From Candidatus Levybacteria bacterium RIFCSPHIGHO2_01_FULL_40_16 (GTDB lineage Bacteria > Patescibacteriota > Microgenomatia > Levybacterales > UBA12049), in contig MFNS01000001.1 in the NCBI GenBank assembly GCA_001783805.1, forward strand, positions 342,921 to 406,920: a DNA stretch of 64,000 nt, read 5' to 3'. The notes under the pieces were generated by a model. The model did no database searches. It saw only the letters and a list, made by a program, of their open reading frames with translations, and was not told the origin of the DNA. This document shows, one piece after another, positions 11,159-52,543 of the stretch; the first letter of the stretch is position 1; each line of letters starts with the position of its first letter. A program made the translations under genes and the position numbers.

Positions 11159-11169
11159 ATCCAAGGGCG

Positions 11170-11847
11170 TTAAAGCTTGTCAATTTCGGAAGCTAATTCC
11201 TGATTTCTGATTACCATGGAAGCATCATCTCTGATAAATTTAACAATTCCTTCTTTATTAATTATTACGTAACTATGTCCGGGAAATTGACCTTTGTGCA
11301 TTGACGAAGGAAGAGTTAGAACTCCGTATTTTCGGGAAACCTCCCTATTGCTATCAAAAACTACTGTTGCAAGAGCTAGTTCCGGCATTTTATCTGTCGC
11401 TTGTTTCCAATCATTTTTAGGATCAACCGTAATGTTTAATATTACAGCTTTATTTTGCAACCCCGTGTCCTTGCCAAAAGCCGCAATCTGATTCCAGCAG
11501 GCCGGATAACACATCAATCCTTCGTTAAAGAAAAGAATGACATTTTTACCTTTTAATCCACTTAGGGTAATTTTTTTTTCATCATAACTTTCCAACGTAA
11601 AATCAGGCGCAGGTTTATTAATTAAACTATTAAAAATAGTCGTATCAACAGGCGCTCCTCCTCCATGATGATCTGCCGCAGAGTCTGTTTGCGTGCTTTT
11701 GGATAACGCATTACCTGATACTTCCTTTTCAGTCGCCTGAACAGCTTGTCTGTTAGAATTGCTAAACCGACTAACGACCAGTATTAAAACTACGACTATT
11801 CCGGTACTTAAAATTGCAATAAGCCCTGTTTTATTCATGTAAGTCAC
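11170..11847 (-). CDS. membrane-anchored thioredoxin-fold thiol-disulfide oxidoreductase (TlpA/redoxin-like), paralog 1
   Basis: CYPAC (CxxC) active site in a redoxin fold; N-terminal TM segment. Confidence 0.75.
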   Translation of the reverse strand: MTYMNKTGLIAILSTGIVVVLILVVSRFSNSNRQAVQATEKEVSGNALSKSTQTDSAADHHGGGAPVDTTIFNSLINKPAPDFTLESYDEKKITLSGLKGKNVILFFNEGLMCYPACWNQIAAFGKDTGLQNKAVILNITVDPKNDWKQATDKMPELALATVVFDSNREVSRKYGVLTLPSSMHKGQFPGHSYVIINKEGIVKFIRDDASMVIRNQELASEIDKL

Positions 11848-12721: not shown

Positions 12722-12724
12722 AGG

Positions 12725-13333
12725 TTAAAGTTTGTTTATTTCTGCTATTAATTCCTGATTTCTGACTGCCATGGAAACGTCATCTTTGACATATCGGACA
12801 ATTCCCTCTTTATCAATAACCACGTAGGTGTGCCCGGGAAGCTGTCCTTTATGCATGGATGAAGGAAGAGAAAGCATGTCATAGGTTATGGAAATCCGCT
12901 TGTCGGTATCAAAAAGGACTACGGCTTTAGCCAATTCCGGCATTTTTTCAATTGCCATTTTCCAGTCGCTCTTGGGATCATTGAGAATCGTCAATGCAAT
13001 AGTATCCTTACTCGCAAATTCATTATCTTTCCCAAAAGCAGCGATTTGGTCCCAGCAGGCCGGATAACACATTAGGCCTTCACTAAAAAATAGGACAACA
13101 TTTTTACCCTTGAGCTTGCTTAAGGTAACTTTTTCACCGTTGTAATTTTCCAATGTAAAATCAGGCGCTGTTTTGCCGACTAAACTATCAAGCGATATAT
13201 TTACTGTCTGACTAGTAGAAGAGCTTTGCCCGCTATTGCCATTGAATAGAAAGATCGCCGCCACAAGCATAGCAGCTGTAATTATAGAGCCCAATATAAT
13301 AATTTGTTTTTCTTTCATGAAATTATTTAACAA
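12725..13333 (-). CDS. membrane-anchored thioredoxin-fold thiol-disulfide oxidoreductase, paralog 2
   Basis: CYPAC motif; about 65% identical to paralog 1 across the thioredoxin-fold domain. Confidence 0.75.
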   Translation of the reverse strand: MLNNFMKEKQIIILGSIITAAMLVAAIFLFNGNSGQSSSTSQTVNISLDSLVGKTAPDFTLENYNGEKVTLSKLKGKNVVLFFSEGLMCYPACWDQIAAFGKDNEFASKDTIALTILNDPKSDWKMAIEKMPELAKAVVLFDTDKRISITYDMLSLPSSMHKGQLPGHTYVVIDKEGIVRYVKDDVSMAVRNQELIAEINKL

Positions 13334-24796: not shown

Positions 24797-25483
24797 TTAA
24801 ATCTTCTGACCGAGGATTATGGTTACAGGAACCAAGGCATCTACAGGTAATTCTTCTTCCTTAACTGTAAAAGAATTTTCAAGAACGGTTTTTAACTTAT
24901 TTAGAAAATCTTTATCCACTGCTTTTTTGGCTTTTATAATAGTATCCGTATAATCGGAATTGTCCGCATTGCCAACCGAGGACACTGTAAATCCTTCTGC
25001 CTCCAAATTGGTTTTTTGCCTTCCGGCTTCTCCATCTACACCGCTTCCATTTAGTATTTCTATTTCATATTTAGTAAAATCTATTGTTTTTGTAGGCTCG
25101 GGCGTAATTGTCGGAGTTGGACTCGAAGTTGCCACATTGATTTTTTCTCCCTTAAATATCCCTTGTTTATAAATAAAAATCCCAACAAATAGAGCTATCG
25201 CTATAATAAAAATGAAAAATATTGGCCACATATAATTCTTTTTGGGGGTGTTGCCGGATCCCAGAGATTCTTCCTTAATCATCTTTTCCTTAAAGTCGCT
25301 TAGCGCGTCCGCGGATGAAGCCCGTGAGGCAGGAACGTCGTCGACTACCTCTATATTCTCTGTCGTTTTAGTTACCACGTCGGAAATAACTACTGGTTCC
25401 TTCGGCTCGCCGGAGCCTTTGGCGGAGGAGGCTGTTTTTATTTCTTCAGGCTTTGCCTCGTGTTTCTTATGGACAGAAGTCAT
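24797..25483 (-). CDS. LytR_C-domain membrane-anchored protein
   Basis: C-terminal EILNGSGVDGEAGRQKTNLEAEGFTV typical of the LytR C-terminal domain; central TM helix. Carries the family-1 in-frame element. Confidence 0.6.
   Translation of the reverse strand: MTSVHKKHEAKPEEIKTASSAKGSGEPKEPVVISDVVTKTTENIEVVDDVPASRASSADALSDFKEKMIKEESLGSGNTPKKNYMWPIFFIFIIAIALFVGIFIYKQGIFKGEKINVATSSPTPTITPEPTKTIDFTKYEIEILNGSGVDGEAGRQKTNLEAEGFTVSSVGNADNSDYTDTIIKAKKAVDKDFLNKLKTVLENSFTVKEEELPVDALVPVTIILGQKI
25398..25434. repeat. GC-rich element, family 1 copy (CCTTCGGCTCGCCGGAGCCTTTGGCGGAGGAGGCTG), in frame in the LytR_C gene
   Basis: Encodes ASSAKGSGEPKE. Confidence 0.8.
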
Positions 25484-29877: not shown

Positions 29878-30483
29878 CTATCCTGCTGCGCCTCGGAACA
29901 TTTCTGTTTTGTTTTGCTCTCTCACAATCGCCAACGGAGGCGGTTTTTTCGCTTCTTTTTGCTGCAAGTCCTGCATTTCTTTGTTTTTCTCCTGCTCTAC
30001 TTTTTCTGCGGGCCTTTCTTCTCCGCCGGCCGGCGGATTTTTTGGATTAAATGTCGGATCATAATAAACGTCTTTGTGCAATTGATTTCGCAACTCTATC
30101 AGCCTTTTTTGCTCTTCAAGAGTTTTGTCGGCAATCTGCTCTTGAAATTCGCTCGGTTTTTTACCCTCCACCGTTGCCTGCTTATTGGTTTTCAAACTTC
30201 CATCCTGCGACATGTCCGACTTGCCATAAAGATCCTTTAAAAATTTAATCCGTTCTTCATCCGATTGCCACTGCTTTTGCTTTGGCTCACTCGCCTCGCT
30301 GGAGCTTTGACGAAGCGGGCCGAAGTCCTCAGCGGAAGCGGCAGGCTTGGCTATCCCAACTTGTCCGGCTAAATCTTGTGCAATTTCTTCAGGTATTTTT
30401 ATAGCCTGTTTTGCGGTCTGTTTCGCAGTTTGTCCGAGCTGATTAAGCGCCCCTCCCAAAATTGTCGTATCATCCATATTCAA
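29878..30483 (-). CDS. hypothetical charged low-complexity protein
   Basis: 201-aa ORF rich in K/E/Q; carries an in-frame NPPAGGEE palindromic element. Confidence 0.4.
   Translation of the reverse strand: MNMDDTTILGGALNQLGQTAKQTAKQAIKIPEEIAQDLAGQVGIAKPAASAEDFGPLRQSSSEASEPKQKQWQSDEERIKFLKDLYGKSDMSQDGSLKTNKQATVEGKKPSEFQEQIADKTLEEQKRLIELRNQLHKDVYYDPTFNPKNPPAGGEERPAEKVEQEKNKEMQDLQQKEAKKPPPLAIVREQNKTEMFRGAAG
30022..30039. repeat. family 2 palindromic element (TCCGCCGGCCGGCGGATT), in frame in the hypothetical gene
   Basis: Encodes NPPAGGE on the minus strand. Confidence 0.75.
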
Positions 30484-31312: not shown

Positions 31313-31945
31313 TCAATAATCCTGCCTACCTTCCATGGCGCGTTGAAGAGTTAGTTCGTCGGCGTATTCGATGTCCGCTCCCGTCGGCAATCCCCGCCCA
31401 ATGCGGGTAATTTTTAATTTTGCTTGTCCTTCCGAAGCTTTAGCGGAGGAGGAAGTTTTGATTTGTTTACTAATATACATTGCTGTTGCCTCTCCCTCCA
31501 TGGTCGGATTCGTTGCCAAAATGATTTCACTGATTGCAGACTGATTTCCGCGGATTCGTTCAAGCAATTGATTAATGCGGATCTCATCCGGACCGATGTT
31601 GCTCAACGGATCTATTCTTCCATGAAGCACGTGATAAATCCCCTTATATTTTCCGTTTTTCTCAAGCGCCAAAACATCCAGCGGCTCCTCGACCACGCAA
31701 ATAATTGACTTATTCCGCTCCCGATTCGCACAAATACTGCAGGGGTCGCTCTCGTCTACCGAAAAGCAAATAGAACAAATAATTGTTCCTTTTTTGAGAT
31801 TTTGGATTGAATTTGAAAAGCTATCTAATTCACCTTGCGGGACATGTAAAAGGTAAAAGGTCAAACGCTGGGCGGTTTTGCTACCAATACCGGGTAACTT
31901 CTCAAAAGATTCAATTAAATTCTGTATTGCCTTGGGAATCTTCAT
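31313..31945 (-). CDS. recR: recombination protein RecR
   Basis: N-terminal HhH (LPGIGSKTAQRL), C4 zinc finger, Toprim domain. Confidence 0.95.
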   Translation of the reverse strand: MKIPKAIQNLIESFEKLPGIGSKTAQRLTFYLLHVPQGELDSFSNSIQNLKKGTIICSICFSVDESDPCSICANRERNKSIICVVEEPLDVLALEKNGKYKGIYHVLHGRIDPLSNIGPDEIRINQLLERIRGNQSAISEIILATNPTMEGEATAMYISKQIKTSSSAKASEGQAKLKITRIGRGLPTGADIEYADELTLQRAMEGRQDY

Positions 31946-33322: not shown

Positions 33323-34807
33323 TTACCTATTTTTTAATTCTATTTCTATTTTAACATTTTTTTTCGTAATTCCTCTTAGGGCATTTTCCAATACTTCTTC
33401 AGTTTTAACTTCGCTAAGTTTGTCTTTATGAAATTTAAAATTTGTCTGCAATAATAATTTTTTACCATCGTAGCTTTTTATACTGCATCCGCGCAAAACT
33501 CCGGCTATAGAATGATTGTAGGTTTTTACTTTATCTACTAAAGCAGTCCACAAAGCATCATGCTCGCTATAATTTGAAATCCCCTGCTGGACGATATTAA
33601 TCGTTTCTTTTTTTATATCTAGTCGAGGGGTGGCGCGACTGGAGGGCGTCCCGTCGAGTGACCGCAGGGGGCTTGCGACCGAGGACGTCGGACGGGACGA
33701 AGGAGCGACAGGACCCCGAACTGATGAAGTATGGTCCGCCCCAACAGCGACTGAACACCATTCGACAATCACTAATTCCAATGGCAATTGGGGAAGCACT
33801 GCATATTTCAGCTCACTTTTTGCTTTTGCTAATAATTCAATCAGTCTTTTTATTTCTCCTATTTCTAATTTTGAATTATCCATTACGAGCACCGAATTAT
33901 CTTCTGAAAATTCCACTCCCGCTTTAAAAAGCAAACTATTATGTAAAGTTTCTATGAGCCCCTGCATGAAATACCCCATCTCAACCCCCTCGCTTGCGAG
34001 CTTTGCGACTATTCCCAATCCCCCCTTCGTATCTTTTTCTTCCAAAGATTTTATCATTTGGGCTATTTGATATTGTGTGCTGGCAATTGAATAATTTTTC
34101 TCGACCAATTCTTTGGTGATTTTTTTATTCTTGGCTAGCGTTACTATTTCTTCCAGAATTTTCGCTCCATCCCTAAAGCTTCCATCCGAAAGATTAGCAA
34201 TTAAGCGTAGGGCATCTTCCTCTGCTTCCAAATTTTCTTTTTTAATTATTTTCCCAAATGAACGGACCAGCTCTTCCTCGGTTGCTCTTTTAAATTGTAT
34301 GCGTAAACAGCGCGATATTATTGTGCCGGGAACTTTGTGGGGTTCGGTTGTACAAAGGATAAAAACCACGTGGCTTGGCGGCTCTTCCAAAGTTTTAAGA
34401 AGCGCATTGAAAGCCTCCGTAGTTAGCATGTGAACTTCATCAATAATGTAAACTTTTCTGGTCGCGCTCATTGGAGACAATTTTACTTTCTCACGAAGAT
34501 CGCGGATTTCATCTATTCCTCTATTTGATGCGCCGTCTATTTCCAGAATATCCATATTCGTTCCATTGGTTATGGATACGCATTGCTCGCATTTGTTGCA
34601 CGGCTCGATACCCTTTGTTTTCTTTTCGCAATTCAGGACTTTTGCGACAATTCTGGCTGTTGACGTTTTTCCCAAACCCTTAGAACCCGTAAAGAGAAAC
34701 GCATGCGGAACCGATGAGCTTTCCAGAACATTGTAAAGTTTTTCGCGAACTTCTTTGCTGTCAAGCTCTTCTATTTTTTGCGGACGATATTTCCGATAAA
34801 AAACCAT
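33323..34807 (-). CDS. dnaX: DNA polymerase III subunit gamma/tau
   Basis: Walker A GSKGLGKTST, zinc module CNKCEQC, clamp-loader domains. Contains a GC-rich in-frame linker insertion. Confidence 0.9.
   Translation of the reverse strand: MVFYRKYRPQKIEELDSKEVREKLYNVLESSSVPHAFLFTGSKGLGKTSTARIVAKVLNCEKKTKGIEPCNKCEQCVSITNGTNMDILEIDGASNRGIDEIRDLREKVKLSPMSATRKVYIIDEVHMLTTEAFNALLKTLEEPPSHVVFILCTTEPHKVPGTIISRCLRIQFKRATEEELVRSFGKIIKKENLEAEEDALRLIANLSDGSFRDGAKILEEIVTLAKNKKITKELVEKNYSIASTQYQIAQMIKSLEEKDTKGGLGIVAKLASEGVEMGYFMQGLIETLHNSLLFKAGVEFSEDNSVLVMDNSKLEIGEIKRLIELLAKAKSELKYAVLPQLPLELVIVEWCSVAVGADHTSSVRGPVAPSSRPTSSVASPLRSLDGTPSSRATPRLDIKKETINIVQQGISNYSEHDALWTALVDKVKTYNHSIAGVLRGCSIKSYDGKKLLLQTNFKFHKDKLSEVKTEEVLENALRGITKKNVKIEIELKNR
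33621..33765. repeat. ~145-nt GC-rich imperfectly palindromic element inserted in frame inside dnaX
   Basis: GC content far above the flanks; inverted segments CGTCCCGTCG ... CGACGGGACG; encodes a Pro/Ser/Arg-rich linker (GADHTSSVRGPVAPSSRPTSSVASPLRSLDGTPSSRATPRLD). Confidence 0.6.
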
Positions 34808-35469: not shown

Positions 35470-35847
35470 TTAGGCGGACATCTCTGCAGCTTTACCCAGA
35501 GGTCCCATGAGATGGAGGTGTAAATGATCTATAATTTGCGCTCCCCCTCCATTGATGACAACACGATAGCCTTTATTTTCAAGCTTCTGCTCCTTAATCA
35601 TTTTCTGGATTACTTTTGTAAGCTTAATCATTAATCCCTGCCCGCCATTGGCTTCGCTTTCAGGCGATGGCGGGCGGGCTTTATCATTCATCATTAATAA
35701 ATCTCCAAGGTGTTTTTTGGGAATAATTAATAAATGAACAGGTTTTAACGGATGAATGTCGGGAAAAACCATAATATTAGCATCTTCGTATGTAAATTCC
35801 TTCGGAATAATTCTGTCTCTGATTTTGCAAAATATGCAAGACTTCAT
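35470..35847 (-). CDS. HIT-family protein
   Basis: Histidine triad DHLHLHLMG. Confidence 0.85.
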   Translation of the reverse strand: MKSCIFCKIRDRIIPKEFTYEDANIMVFPDIHPLKPVHLLIIPKKHLGDLLMMNDKARPPSPESEANGGQGLMIKLTKVIQKMIKEQKLENKGYRVVINGGGAQIIDHLHLHLMGPLGKAAEMSA

Positions 35848-35848
35848 T

Positions 35849-36790
35849 TTAAATTTTCTCCAACACTTTTATTATTTCTTTAATCCCCAGCTTGCTTGGA
35901 CGCATTTTTGGATTTTTGACTGATCCATTGAGAAGCATTTTTTTTCCAACATGCAGAAACCAGGTGGCATCCGGATCCAGTTTTTTCAGCTTTTCATAAA
36001 CAGGGGTCAAGTCTATATTTATTTTGCCGATGACAGGCACGGCTTTGATGCGGATGTACCCCTTTCTCGGATCTTTTCTTAAAACGATTACATAGCCCAT
36101 CTTTTGAGATAATTTGATAACCGTATCGTTTAAAGTTTCAAAGCCAATTCCTTTTCCAAATTGAGTGGTAAACTTTTGGCCATTTTCTCTGATTTCTTTT
36201 TCCGCCCAGATTCTATTTTCAAATTCGTGCAAAACCGCGTCTAATCCCTTGCTCACAAATTCAACATAATAATCATCCTGATTGGGAAATTGAAATTTAA
36301 GTCCATCCAAAATGCTTGTCAGATTAAACTCATGATAGTCTGCAACTGCATCTTTCCAAAATACTTCCTTAAAATGATCAATATCTACAATTACTCCAAT
36401 CATTCTGGAGATCGCTTCTGTTTTGCTCTTTATTTTGTCATTCTGAATTCTGAATTCTGAATTCTGAATTCTGACGTAATCCCAGGTTAGACTCGCACCG
36501 CAGACTTTGTCCGATACGGTCTGGTGATGATCCAAAGGTCCCAAACCCGTATCAACATGAATTACCTCGTCATCCTCAATGACTTCAATTGGAGACGCTT
36601 CATTTCCATTTTTCCATTTTCCGCTGTCAATCCGTTCCCCTGCCGGTACAAATCTTACAGTTGCAGTTTCCCATCCCGGTAAAAACTTTTTAATTAGCCA
36701 AACTGAAGTAATTGCATCCATATCCGGAGACGTATGCGTCACAACAATTTTCATGCTTTCAAGTATACAGCAGTATCCTCTACTTGACAA
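35849..36790 (-). CDS. DHH-family phosphoesterase
   Basis: Motif I/II VVTHTSPDMDAITS and motif III LDHHQT. Contains an in-frame heptamer repeat tract. Confidence 0.6.
   Translation of the reverse strand: MSSRGYCCILESMKIVVTHTSPDMDAITSVWLIKKFLPGWETATVRFVPAGERIDSGKWKNGNEASPIEVIEDDEVIHVDTGLGPLDHHQTVSDKVCGASLTWDYVRIQNSEFRIQNDKIKSKTEAISRMIGVIVDIDHFKEVFWKDAVADYHEFNLTSILDGLKFQFPNQDDYYVEFVSKGLDAVLHEFENRIWAEKEIRENGQKFTTQFGKGIGFETLNDTVIKLSQKMGYVIVLRKDPRKGYIRIKAVPVIGKINIDLTPVYEKLKKLDPDATWFLHVGKKMLLNGSVKNPKMRPSKLGIKEIIKVLEKI
36441..36474. repeat. (TGAATTC)n heptanucleotide tandem repeat, 4.5 copies, inside the DHH esterase CDS
   Basis: TTCTGAATTCTGAATTCTGAATTCTGAATTCTGA; encodes RIQNSEFRIQN. Confidence 0.8.
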
Positions 36791-39462: not shown

Positions 39463-39701
39463 AGTCTTATTTTATTCTACTTAAATTTCCATGTAAAATA
39501 AATGCCTGCATTATTCTAATCTCTTGAGCCCACCGCTCTTTTCCAAAATGGGGAATGTTATTCATATATCTTTAATAAAACTCATGCTCCCGCAAATCAT
39601 TATTTTCATAACTTTATTCTTTCTTATTAGCAACTTTTAATTATTAATTATTCGGTAAATTACTAAATATTAATTAATATTAATTAGCTGTACAAAAGTT
39701 G

Positions 39702-39721
39702 GCTGCTATGTAGCAGCGAAC
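39702..39721. repeat. copy 1 of palindromic repeat GCTGCTATGTAGCAGCGAAC, 3' flank of the trpR-like gene
   Basis: Identical to the core of the copy at 40287-40310. Confidence 0.8.
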
Positions 39722-39732
39722 TTTATACCAGC

Positions 39733-40275: not shown

Positions 40276-41154
40276 TTACTGCAATAGTTCGCTGCTATGT
40301 AGCAGCGAACTTACTACATAACTTTTATATTGCATATGTTTCAGGAAGAATTCAGCTGTTGCTTTGTCTGCCTGTTCTGCGTGTTTTGAATTATCGTGAA
40401 ATCCGTGTTCCCCGCCTTCAATAGTAATTAATTTCGCATTCTTAAAAAGCTTAGAATACTTAACAGAATCAGAATATGGAATATAAGAATCTTTGTCCCC
40501 GTGAATAAAGAGAATTGGATTATTAATACCTACAAGTCCTTTCCATGGCTCAAGAATTTTGATTTCATCCATAAGGTTTTTCCCAACGTTAAACCCCTTA
40601 CTTCCTATTTCTGTGAATCCAAACTTTTCTGCCCTGTCAAACGCCGGTTTCCCAAAGTATTTCTTTCCCCAAGGAGTAACGGGCGTAATCTTTGAACTAT
40701 AATCAATTCCTGCATTCCATAGGACAAGCGCTTTTACCAATTCTGAATGTTTTGAAGTGAATAAGGAAACTGCTCCGCCTCCAAAACTTGCCCCCAGAAT
40801 CCCAAACTCCCTATATTCTTTTTCCTGAAGAAATTTAATTGCTGATTCCAAATCTTCCATCTCTTTTGTAATCGTCATATCAATGCTTTTACCTTCGCTT
40901 TCACCTTGTCCACGGAAATCAAAACGGAAAACGGCAAATCCCACATCTGTTAATTTTTTAGCGAGCTGGGTAAAAACTCCATCCTCTTCTTTGTCAACAT
41001 TTCCTATTCCGTGACAAAGAATGATGCACTTATCGGTTTTTTGTTTGGGAGTTGACAAGATTCCGCAGAGTTTTAATCCGTCAGAAGTGTCAAAAAAAAC
41101 TTTTTCTTCCATGATTTTTAGATTTGGCAGAAGGCAGGATATGGTTCCAGCCAT
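40276..41154 (-). CDS. alpha/beta hydrolase (S9/dienelactone-hydrolase-like)
   Basis: GxSxG GASFGGG; the last 11 codons are encoded by the palindromic repeat copy 2. Confidence 0.75.
   Translation of the reverse strand: MAGTISCLLPNLKIMEEKVFFDTSDGLKLCGILSTPKQKTDKCIILCHGIGNVDKEEDGVFTQLAKKLTDVGFAVFRFDFRGQGESEGKSIDMTITKEMEDLESAIKFLQEKEYREFGILGASFGGGAVSLFTSKHSELVKALVLWNAGIDYSSKITPVTPWGKKYFGKPAFDRAEKFGFTEIGSKGFNVGKNLMDEIKILEPWKGLVGINNPILFIHGDKDSYIPYSDSVKYSKLFKNAKLITIEGGEHGFHDNSKHAEQADKATAEFFLKHMQYKSYVVSSLLHSSELLQ
40287..40310. repeat. copy 2 of the perfect 24-bp palindrome GTTCGCTGCTATGTAGCAGCGAAC, 5' flank of the trpR-like gene
   Basis: Perfect palindrome overlapping the 3' end of the hydrolase CDS. 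Confidence 0.8.
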
Positions 41155-44854: not shown

Positions 44855-45739
44855 TTAAGACTTTTTACTTTTTGTTTTTGTTTTTGCTTCTTTTTCAGCT
44901 TTCTTCTTTGGCTCGCCGGAGCCTTTGGCGGAGGCGGCTGCAGCCCTGGCCGCTTCTTTTTCTGCCTTAATCTTGGCTTTCTCCGCTTCTACCGCTGTCT
45001 TTTTTACTTCTTCTTCTCTAATCCTGATTCCTTCTTTTCTTCCTTCAATCCAAGCGTCAATAATGTAAGAGACTATTAATTTAATCGAACCAACCGCGTC
45101 GTCGTTGGCCGGAATCGGATAATCGATAATTGACGGGTCCGCATTGGTATCAACCAGAGCGACTGTCGGAACATGGGTTACCAAAGCCTCCCTAACTGCC
45201 AAATTTTCCAAGTGAGAATCAATTATGAAGAGGCAATCTGGCTTTTTGGTAATTTTCGCAACTCCGCCATAAAGATTCTCCAATTTGTTTTTTTCTTTTT
45301 CCCATCCGCCGACTTCTTTTTTTGTGTACCTTGATTTTACTTCGTCATCTTGTAAATCGGTGACGAAATCCGCGTATTTCTTAAAATTCTTGGAGACTTC
45401 CTGAAAATTCGTCAAAAGTCCGCCCACCCAACGGTTGGTAATGTAGAAAAGGTTCTCGCCTGAATTCTCACCTGCAGAAGCCCTTTTTACTTCCTCCTCA
45501 ACTATTGTTCTGGCTTGTCTTTTCGTACCAACAATAACCAGTACGCCGTTTTTGGCGGCTAAATCTCGGATAAAGGCAGCGGCCTCTTCCAAGCCTGCCT
45601 TTGTTTTGGCAAGATCAATAATGTGAATGTTATCACGGGCTTCAAAAATAAAATCCCGGGCTTTGGGGTTACTGCGGGTGACTTGGTGGCCAAAATGGCA
45701 ACCGGCTTCCAATAATTCTTCCAGCGTAATTTCTCTCAT
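44855..45739 (-). CDS. rpsB: 30S ribosomal protein S2 with Lys/Ala-rich C-terminal extension
   Basis: Conserved S2 core; the C-terminal tail includes the family-1 in-frame element. Confidence 0.95.
   Translation of the reverse strand: MREITLEELLEAGCHFGHQVTRSNPKARDFIFEARDNIHIIDLAKTKAGLEEAAAFIRDLAAKNGVLVIVGTKRQARTIVEEEVKRASAGENSGENLFYITNRWVGGLLTNFQEVSKNFKKYADFVTDLQDDEVKSRYTKKEVGGWEKEKNKLENLYGGVAKITKKPDCLFIIDSHLENLAVREALVTHVPTVALVDTNADPSIIDYPIPANDDAVGSIKLIVSYIIDAWIEGRKEGIRIREEEVKKTAVEAEKAKIKAEKEAARAAAASAKGSGEPKKKAEKEAKTKTKSKKS
44905..44940. repeat. GC-rich element, family 1 (TCTTTGGCTCGCCGGAGCCTTTGGCGGAGGCGGCTG), in frame in the rpsB tail
   Basis: Near-identical copies at 25398-25434 and 52246-52281; encodes AAASAKGSGEPK. 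Confidence 0.8.
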
Positions 45740-52030: not shown

Positions 52031-52543
52031 TTATTTTTCCAAGTCCAGAAACTTATATTTATACCCTTCGGATTCCCCCGCTTTTTCAGATATGACTGCT
52101 TTAAACTCCGAATAATCCGGAAAAAAAGTATCCGCTTCGGAGTCTCCACCAGCTGGCGGATCAATTATCGTTAAATAAAGTTTGTCCACTAATCCTTTTT
52201 TAATCGCCTGGTCATAAATCTGTCCACCTCCAATAATAAATATTTCCTTTGGCTCGCCGAAGCCTTCGGCGGAGGCGGCTGCTTTTTTAATCGATTCTTC
52301 AATTGAATTGCAAACGACAGCGCCTTCCGCCTTAAATTTAGCGTCTCGCGTTATAACAATGTTATAACGTTTTGGTAAAGGTTTTGTCGGCAGAGATTCC
52401 CAAGTTTTGCGACCCATGATAACCGGATGCCCCTTTGTGATATTTCTAAATCTTTGCAAATCTTCTTTGATGTGCCACAGCAACTTATTGTCTTTTCCCA
52501 ATTCCCGATTTTTCCCAATCGCCGCAATCGCACTTACTTTCAT
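52031..52543 (-). CDS. folA: dihydrofolate reductase
   Basis: N-terminal IAAIGKNRELG; GRKTWESLP and GGGQIY motifs. Carries two in-frame GC-rich insertions (family 1 and family 2). Confidence 0.9.
   Translation of the reverse strand: MKVSAIAAIGKNRELGKDNKLLWHIKEDLQRFRNITKGHPVIMGRKTWESLPTKPLPKRYNIVITRDAKFKAEGAVVCNSIEESIKKAAASAEGFGEPKEIFIIGGGQIYDQAIKKGLVDKLYLTIIDPPAGGDSEADTFFPDYSEFKAVISEKAGESEGYKYKFLDLEK
52145..52162. repeat. family 2 palindromic element (TCCACCAGCTGGCGGATC), in frame in folA
   Basis: Encodes DPPAGGD inserted between IID and EADTFFP of DHFR. Confidence 0.75.
52246..52281. repeat. GC-rich element, family 1 copy (CCTTTGGCTCGCCGAAGCCTTCGGCGGAGGCGGCTG), in frame in folA
   Basis: Encodes AAASAEGFGEPK, inserted before EIFIIGGG. 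Confidence 0.8.

Follow-up and report, generated by a model that had tools for sequence, protein, structure and literature searches.

An in-frame GC-rich palindromic segment in the dnaX gene of a Levybacteria genome is probably a copy of a dispersed repeat

Introduction

The dnaX gene of Candidatus Levybacteria bacterium RIFCSPHIGHO2_01_FULL_40_16 is AT-rich and contains a short, strongly GC-rich palindromic segment, and the question raised by this locus is whether the segment is a diverged linker of the protein, a signal acting on the dnaX message, or a piece of repeated DNA inserted into the gene. The window analyzed here is a stretch of 64,000 nucleotides (assembly GCA_001783805.1, contig MFNS01000001.1, positions 342,921 to 406,920 of the forward strand), and all coordinates given below are positions in this window. 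Bacteria of the candidate phyla radiation (CPR) have tiny genomes that are thought to be poor in mobile DNA, and many of their proteins carry insertions that are unexplained. An original prediction, made from the sequence without database searches, described a ~145-nt palindromic element at 33621-33765, inserted in frame in dnaX, and likened it to the Rickettsia palindromic elements (RPEs). The analysis reported here indicates that the segment is very probably a copy of a dispersed, non-autonomous, selfish GC-rich palindromic repeat that is translated as extra linker.

Results

The GC-rich island and the repeat unit

Mean G+C content of the window is 39% (SD=6.8%), and an island delimited by 80-nt intervals of at least 58% GC extends from 33600 to 33769, with a peak of 73.8% in 80 nt that is the highest of the whole 64 kb and about 5 SD over the mean. 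As originally described, the island lies in frame within an AT-rich gene: the 494-aa open reading frame (ORF) on the minus strand at 33323-34807, which is dnaX (DNA polymerase III gamma/tau) by Pfam matches to DNA_pol3_delta2 (5e-45), DNA_pol3_gamma3, and an ATPase lid domain. The encoded protein is identical to one deposited for Candidatus Levybacteria bacterium RIFCSPLOWO2.

The repeat unit within the island, as defined by covariance model R1 and by homologous copies elsewhere, is 95 nt long and ~73% GC (33625-33719, minus strand; TCGGGGTCCTG...CTCGACGGGACG...CGCCACCCCTC). The model matches at 33620-33724 with 90.5 bits (E 3e-21), which is its only match in the window. There is thus an element where one had been proposed, at a smaller size than the ~145 nt proposed: the other ~46 nt (33720-33765, minus strand; CSVAVGADHTSSV) lie outside the model match and belong to the flanking linker and not to the repeat unit. 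Of the six reading frames of the window copy five are open, and in the dnaX frame it is translated as VRGPVAPSSRPTSSVASPLRSLDGTPSSRATPR (aa 363-395), with GPVAPSSRPTSSVASPLR and SLDGTPSSR among the tryptic peptides encoded. GC content at third codon positions (GC3) is 0.67 in the element vs 0.35 in the remainder of dnaX (binomial p 2e-4). Rfam has no match to the element, either at the gathering threshold or at E values up to 1, and a tRNA scan found no tRNA.

An AlphaFold model of DnaX, built on the ortholog alignment, has a mean predicted local distance difference test score (pLDDT) of 79. The clamp-loader domains are ordered up to ~aa 352, and the last helix (341-352) is taken from the model to close clamp-loader domain III. 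A disordered linker is predicted for residues 355-413, where pLDDT is below 50 and secondary structure is absent; a confident alpha/beta C-terminal domain follows at aa 415-491. The residues encoded by the element fall inside this linker, in agreement with the location between clamp-loader core and C-terminal domain that was first suggested, so that the element lengthens a tether that is already flexible.

Copies in other genes and genomes

Copies beyond dnaX, for which the original prediction had proposed a search, were found in many unrelated genes of related genomes. A scan with a 22-mer core against one genome per prokaryotic species gave six loci, five of which contain the same ~95-nt element in AT-rich contigs outside dnaX, in genes for LeuRS (in another Levybacteria genome), the PolA 5'-3' exonuclease domain, CarB, FolD, and an amidohydrolase; the polA, carB, and folD copies are all in one metagenome-assembled genome (MAG), MFD09206.bin.2.20 (L010, L013, and L014). 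The sixth locus, from a genome of 68% GC, was rejected as a chance match. A structured pattern run against JGI metagenome contigs gave 40 further loci, and the set combined from both searches comprises 39 distinct copies (alignment A2). The search patterns fix three conserved blocks and thereby inflate the number of invariant columns in this set; the covarying columns described below are outside those blocks.

The element is present in frame, in both orientations, in at least 20 unrelated host genes, and the host records are named Candidatus Levybacteria or Patescibacteria. Hosts assigned by Pfam are LeuRS, PolA 5'-3' exonuclease, FolD, amidohydrolase, IF-2, pseudouridine synthase, DNA alkylation repair enzyme, CysRS, Fpg, and peptide deformylase, and those read from translations are CarB (two genomes, same site), Tgt, a P-type ATPase, a helicase, a FemAB-like protein, and a DHH phosphoesterase. 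Most copies lie in long ORFs whose frame is uninterrupted through the element in either orientation, and host domain matches are split by the element while the host frame stays open through it; roughly ten others, found in short open stretches, probably lie between genes. When LeuRS is aligned with its relatives, the element's 30 residues stand out as a clean extra segment. Of the DHH genes, that of L041 is filled and its ortholog in the window (35849-36790) lacks the element. Two copies occur within 5-14 kb in each of L020, L022, L031, and L055. Assembly chimeras of dnaX fragments were considered as a source of the loci in other genes and rejected, as the flanking ORFs are intact genes of other families.

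Two records in the set require comment. L023 (Ga0137414_1237965) has the look of a composite transposon, with two inverted copies ~1.1 kb apart, and this interpretation was rejected because the whole contig is a near-perfect fold-back palindrome centered near position 2914 with arms that are 90-100% complementary; the contig is most likely an amplification or assembly chimera, and its two copies count as one locus. L015 (CAZPZA010000001.1) is labelled 'uncultured Gammaproteobacteria bacterium' but has 36% GC and the element in the same gene and position as contig L046, and the label is probably a binning error.

A hairpin shared among the copies

RNAalifold predicted a long interrupted hairpin from the 39 copies, which was extended by us to 29 pairs in three helices. 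With this structure 89.5% of alignment cells pair, vs 39-46% in controls with the 3' partners slid along by 1-3 columns, and the covariation score is 0.288 vs 0.04-0.08 (at most 0.081) in the slid controls. Fourteen pairs are changed on both sides among the copies, and these double changes, like the slid controls, fall outside the pattern-fixed blocks. Columns 8/114, for example, pair as CG in 17 copies, GC in 17, and UA in 2, columns 20/105 as CG in 17, GC in 13, and AU in 3, and in the central helix columns 27/93 as CG in 21, GC in 13, and UA in 2 and columns 28/92 as CG in 23 and UA in 14. A rod-like hairpin of ~29 pairs is thus kept through compensatory changes, and the evidence for it comes from comparing copies and not from the window sequence by itself. 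The excess of G-U over A-C pairs (33 vs 19) is independent of orientation and does not separate an RNA hairpin from one of single-stranded DNA.

In the window copy (all on the minus strand), the outer helix, which is helix 1 of the 39-copy structure, has the 5' arm TCGGGGT at 33713-33719 and the 3' arm ACCCCTC at 33625-33631. Among the copies its GGGT/ACCC pairs are invariant and its three outer pairs, columns 8/114 among them, covary; in the window copy pairing is limited to GGGGT/ACCCC. The central helix is a perfect 9-nt inverted repeat, with the 5' arm CGTCCCGTC at 33691-33699 and the 3' arm GACGGGACG at 33647-33655, and forms the core of the inverted repeat that was quoted when the segment was first described. 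Folding of the window copy also places an apical stem-loop (GGTCGCA / TGCGGTC, 7-nt loop) at 33660-33680, which is the part of the family that varies most in length and sequence (alignment A2 columns 44-77).

The dnaX linker among orthologs

A segment that orthologs carry at normal GC would have pointed to a simply diverged linker, and none was seen: most close orthologs carry GC-rich elements of what is taken below to be the same superfamily, one carries a decayed copy, and outgroups have none. The DnaX proteins compared are 64-80% identical, with linkers that are similar in length and belong to sequence types A, B, B', and C. At the DNA level nine dnaX orthologs (L001-L009) were compared, and seven of them have, in the same place, a homologous GC-rich block starting with CGGGGTCCTG and ending with GCCACCCC. 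In these seven the whole linker is 49-58% GC vs 34-41% for the remaining gene. The decayed copy, in L009, is 42% GC, L008 has an unrelated ordinary linker, and the distant and outgroup DnaX proteins have no such block.

Type A, that of the window, and type C share 22 nt of identical DNA while their 3' halves are read in different frames (SPLRSLDGTPSSRATP vs PLPAGARQGSPALVTR), and copies in the opposite orientation encode an unrelated peptide. Together with the raised GC3, these observations show that the DNA and not the peptide is conserved. The covariance model scores type B and B' dnaX linkers at 30-46 bits and detects type B copies in three contexts other than dnaX (L020, L022, and L031), at least two of them inside long ORFs. 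Because one model recognizes types B and B' as well, the types are regarded as subfamilies of one superfamily.

The window copy is 98.9% identical to the leuS copy of another genome, 96.8% to the copy in a distantly related dnaX (L030), and 92.6% to the copy in the FemAB-like gene, vs 65-66% to the orthologous copies in the close DnaX relatives L005 (64.9%) and L004. Similarly, the carB and folD copies of one MAG are 93.6% identical, vs 76.8% for the orthologous copy in carB of a second genome. In a neighbor-joining DnaX tree made with the linker masked, subtypes A, B, and C intermingle, and among the 120 best DnaX homologs strict peptide patterns assign 3 linkers to type A, 6 to type C, and 11 to type B. 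This greater similarity of paralogs than of orthologs, along with the scattered subtypes, indicates that the family is, or recently was, active. It means either that the copy at an occupied site is replaced or converted by others time and again or that the dnaX linker has been hit more than once. The dnaX insertion is not a one-off recent event, because the site is occupied across a whole Levybacteria clade with turnover of subfamilies.

Further segments were observed in and around the DnaX linker. In the flanking linker at 33720-33765, CTGTTGGGGCGGACCAT is similar by eye to CTGTTGGTGCGGGTACTG, with which the type C element of the close ortholog L005 begins. This stretch may have been left by the 5' end of an older element, later displaced by the type A copy now in place. 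DnaX orthologs P0049, P0051, P0066, P0079, P0084, and P0090 have a low-complexity insertion of 20-45 residues in the zinc-module region after 'NCE' (alignment A1 columns 63-119), which the window DnaX lacks. A different linker motif, QKTQNQVRLGQ...SDSPSFPSVP, is common to P0055, P0079, and P0084 and may point to additional segments of repeat origin.

Alternative explanations

In one alternative, the hairpin would have taken on a role in the dnaX mRNA, signaling recoding or pausing so that a truncated gamma-like subunit is made beside tau. Recoding of dnaX has parallels in the frameshifting of E. coli and the transcriptional slippage of Thermus, and the element lies where domain III gives way to the linker, the point at which the E. 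coli gamma subunit ends. Downstream of the element by 12 nt is an A7 run (33608-33614, minus strand; AUA AAA AAA GAA) containing an A_AAA_AAA heptamer whose phase would suit a -1 shift. A UAA in the -1 frame is found three codons further along, and both run and stop codon are also present in orthologs L003 and L009. However, the hairpin is 5' of the run, whereas stimulators of -1 shifts lie 3', and the ~12 nt between its end and the run are too many for it to stimulate slippage as a terminator would, for which a distance limit was reportedly set out by Penno and co-workers in 2015. The run is absent from L001 and L004-L007 and only A5 in L002, and is therefore missing in six of the nine orthologs; AAAAAA for two lysines and nearby out-of-frame stops are expected by chance at 39% GC; and the element is not specific to dnaX, occurring in many other genes and in both orientations. 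The locus thus departs from a dnaX frameshift or slippage cassette in position, distance, conservation, and specificity. We consider recoding very unlikely, and a truncated gamma-like DnaX is conceivable but unsupported.

Slightly less probable again is an intervening sequence that is excised from RNA or bypassed by the ribosome, in the manner of 'byp' in Magnusiomyces mitochondria. Excised insertions in rRNA genes are a known trait of CPR bacteria, and the element is a stable GC-rich palindrome in an AT-rich genome, located inside essential genes. The yeast mitochondrial GC clusters and 'byp' are also mobile GC-rich palindromes of an AT-rich genome that can sit inside protein-coding genes; they are organellar, eukaryotic, and 27-55 nt long, and byp is skipped by the ribosome. 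Here, the host frame is continuous through every coding copy despite core lengths of 86-99 nt, which is needed only if the element is translated and thus argues for read-through, and the marked preference for one benign frame likewise implies that the element is translated. Neither a take-off/landing codon pair nor a known ribozyme or intron motif was found (none in Rfam).

Excluded by the copies in other genes is a fast-evolving Pro/Ser/Arg-rich DnaX linker with no repeat and a GC content set by its amino-acid composition: the linker is disordered, it varies in sequence and length among orthologs, its Pro, Ala, Gly, and Arg codons are GC-rich, and L009 has a homologous linker at 42% GC, but GC3 is raised as well, 95-nt sequences of 93-99% identity are present in leuS, a distant dnaX, and the FemAB-like gene and in opposite orientation elsewhere, and the shared DNA is read in different frames among orthologs.

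Other repeats and insertions in the window

The genes neighboring dnaX are ybeY, S21, HIT, ybaB, prs, and recR, and this synteny is kept in relatives. The HIT-family gene at 35470-35847 encodes 125 aa vs 84-118 aa in the syntenic orthologs (L002-L009), and its product has an extra, GC-richer segment (…ARPPSPESEANGGQG…). GC islands of a similar kind, rich in Ala/Ser/Glu/Gly, are present in RecR (31313-31945, 'SSSAKASEGQAK') and in the ORF at 30270-30370, and in-frame GC-rich insertions look common in this genome.

A GC-rich palindromic repeat of 36 nt (CTTTGGCTCGCCGGAGCCTTTGGCGGAGGCGGCTGC) is present at 25400-25435, 44906-44941, and 52247-52282 in copies that are 92-94% identical, in frame on the minus strand of three different ORFs, one of which looks like dihydrofolate reductase; each copy is read as AAASAKGSGEPK. 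Similar 'FAKASAGEGR' tails are found at the ends of DnaX orthologs P0011, P0012, P0015, and P0079. Between 2532 and 8177 the motif GGGGGGGGTTGCAGCCGG, followed by a T-run, occurs at least six times at intervals of ~0.7-1.7 kb, apparently between the genes of an array. A different 36-nt sequence occurs twice, 589 nt apart, at 39693-39728 and 40282-40317, and its internal perfect palindrome, GCTGCTATGTAGCAGC, could be an operator-like site. The adjacent stretches 11169-11633 and 12724-13191, at a spacing of 1555 nt, are 72-75% identical, which suggests tandem paralogous genes.

Discussion

A proposed mechanism and points against it

If the segment is a repeat copy, copies would spread or be homogenized between sites, either by transposition via the hairpin or the terminal inverted repeats or by ectopic gene conversion between copies. 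Those in genes would survive only in a surface loop or linker, where the host frame is free of stops through the element, which is possible because five of its six frames are open, and where the encoded peptide is harmless. In dnaX, the copy lies in the flexible tether that joins the C-terminal domain to the clamp-loader core (domains I-III) and would be read through as 32-33 extra disordered residues rich in Pro, Ser, Thr, and Arg, presumably with no effect on the enzyme beyond a longer tether.

Several observations weigh against this account. The window contains a single copy, and copies in this genome were counted within the window; no second copy was found there by 13-mer search, blastn-short, or the unfiltered covariance model. 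The second helix of the window copy is degenerate, and folding of the interval first described and of the exact element, which had been proposed as a check for the segment, lends the hairpin no support, the z-scores against dinucleotide shuffles being -0.75, +0.21, and -0.52 (RNA and DNA); such single-sequence scores are uninformative because any sequence this GC-rich folds well. None of 500 shuffles of the alignment reached the observed pairing and covariation values, but the copies are related and not independent, so that this control overstates the significance. Translation of the element and its neutrality for the host enzyme are both inferred.

Frame usage is a further difficulty. All forward-orientation copies in long ORFs, which represent 12-13 independent host genes, use a single frame (xGG GGT CCT, reading RGPV...RPTSSVAS...) though three are open, and the chance of one shared frame under random phase is ~2e-6. 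Among reverse-orientation copies one frame is used in six of nine host genes, and all three frames occur. The peptide of the favored forward frame consists of Pro/Ser/Thr/Arg/Gly/Ala, with no cysteine or long hydrophobic runs, and selection against harmful peptides would be the simplest explanation of the bias. The use of one frame, for which a purely neutral passenger gives no explanation, nevertheless hints that the peptide is under selection or that a phase-specific mechanism operates.

Direct signs of movement were sought as well. The flanks of the 39 copies show no consistent direct repeat or target-site duplication, and none is visible between the filled DHH gene of L041 and its empty ortholog in the window, sites that are too diverged for the comparison. 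A search of LeuRS homologs gave no empty-site allele that would fix the ends of the element, the nearest relative being only 68-74% identical, and the shorter cluster members of eight host proteins are truncations and not empty sites. No partner transposase was found, although no whole-genome transposase search was made. Given that no duplication, empty allele, or transposase was found, mobility is deduced from distribution and similarity and was not seen directly. No match was obtained by blastn against plasmids and phages or by a pattern search of IMG/VR viral contigs, and there is no sign of a phage or plasmid vector.

Comparison with known repeat families

RPEs (RPE-1 to RPE-10; Ogata et al., 2000) are short palindromic repeats of non-coding appearance, in several subfamilies, that are dispersed through a small genome, many of them in frame at permissive sites in unrelated housekeeping genes, where the host protein gains a peptide (reviewed in PMC10969869). 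The likeness to RPEs drawn in the original prediction holds for behavior, as multicopy dispersal, a long hairpin, and in-frame residence in at least 20 host genes were all found here, and does not extend to family membership: the hosts are Patescibacteria (Levybacteria) and not Rickettsia or Rickettsiales, and the element is an analogue of RPEs and not a member. It is ~95 nt long vs ~100-150 nt for RPEs, and the two are likened by behavior, not by sequence comparison. The element is also strongly GC-rich in an AT-rich genome, whereas RPEs match the AT-rich composition of their hosts. Residence in both orientations, exclusive use of one forward frame, and subfamily turnover at orthologous sites set the present element apart as well.

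Repetitive extragenic palindromes (REPs) are 20-40 nt long, with a stem of 8-13 bp, a loop of 2-5 nt, and a GTAG or CGTC tag at the terminus, and most of them lie outside genes (Di Nocera et al., 2013; PMC3733652). As with the present element, they can sit inside genes, if more sporadically, notably those of replication and repair, they show stem covariation, and those of the CGTC type are without an associated transposase (PMC3733652). The present element is a three-helix rod of 95 nt with the termini GGGTCCTG and CCACCC, which bear no terminal tag, and CGTC occurs only internally and only in subtype A; it therefore falls outside the REP definition (PMC3733652). Miniature inverted-repeat transposable elements such as Correia/NEMIS, ERIC, and Coxiella QMITE1 are similar in having ~100 nt, whole-length hairpin potential, and occasional in-frame residence (PMC10969869), and the terminal inverted repeats found here, NNNGGGT / ACCCNNN, are complementary, covarying, and short (4-7 bp). 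In contrast to those elements, no target-site duplication or cognate insertion sequence was found here, and a far larger share of the copies is inside genes.

Significance

What is new here is an RPE-like family of in-frame palindromic repeats in a new phylum. Full-text searches gave no account of such elements in CPR, Patescibacteria, or Microgenomates, and their coverage is incomplete, so that this is absence of evidence only. A broader proposal, which we put forward tentatively and regard as plausible rather than probable, is that the copies belong to an undescribed superfamily of structured GC-rich palindromes, with at least three subfamilies (A, B, and C), that is widespread in Levybacteria and other Patescibacteria, colonizes essential genes, and would differ from ordinary passengers in that it uses one forward frame and is kept alike within a genome through ongoing transposition or gene conversion, with repeated switches of subfamily at orthologous sites such as the dnaX linker and carB. 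If so, it would be a self-maintaining system of 'coding' repeats that reshapes the proteomes of reduced genomes, and not a set of dead insertions.

If hairpin repeats are routinely in frame in core genes of replication, translation, and repair, part of the insertion load of CPR proteins would be explained, and annotators and structure predictors would be warned that Pro/Ser/Arg segments of this kind, ~30 residues long, derive from repeats. The greater similarity of paralogous than of orthologous copies is a possible marker of recombination or transposition activity in uncultured organisms. The family would also be a second system, independent of that of Rickettsia, for studying how selfish DNA persists within essential proteins and whether it gives rise to new protein features.

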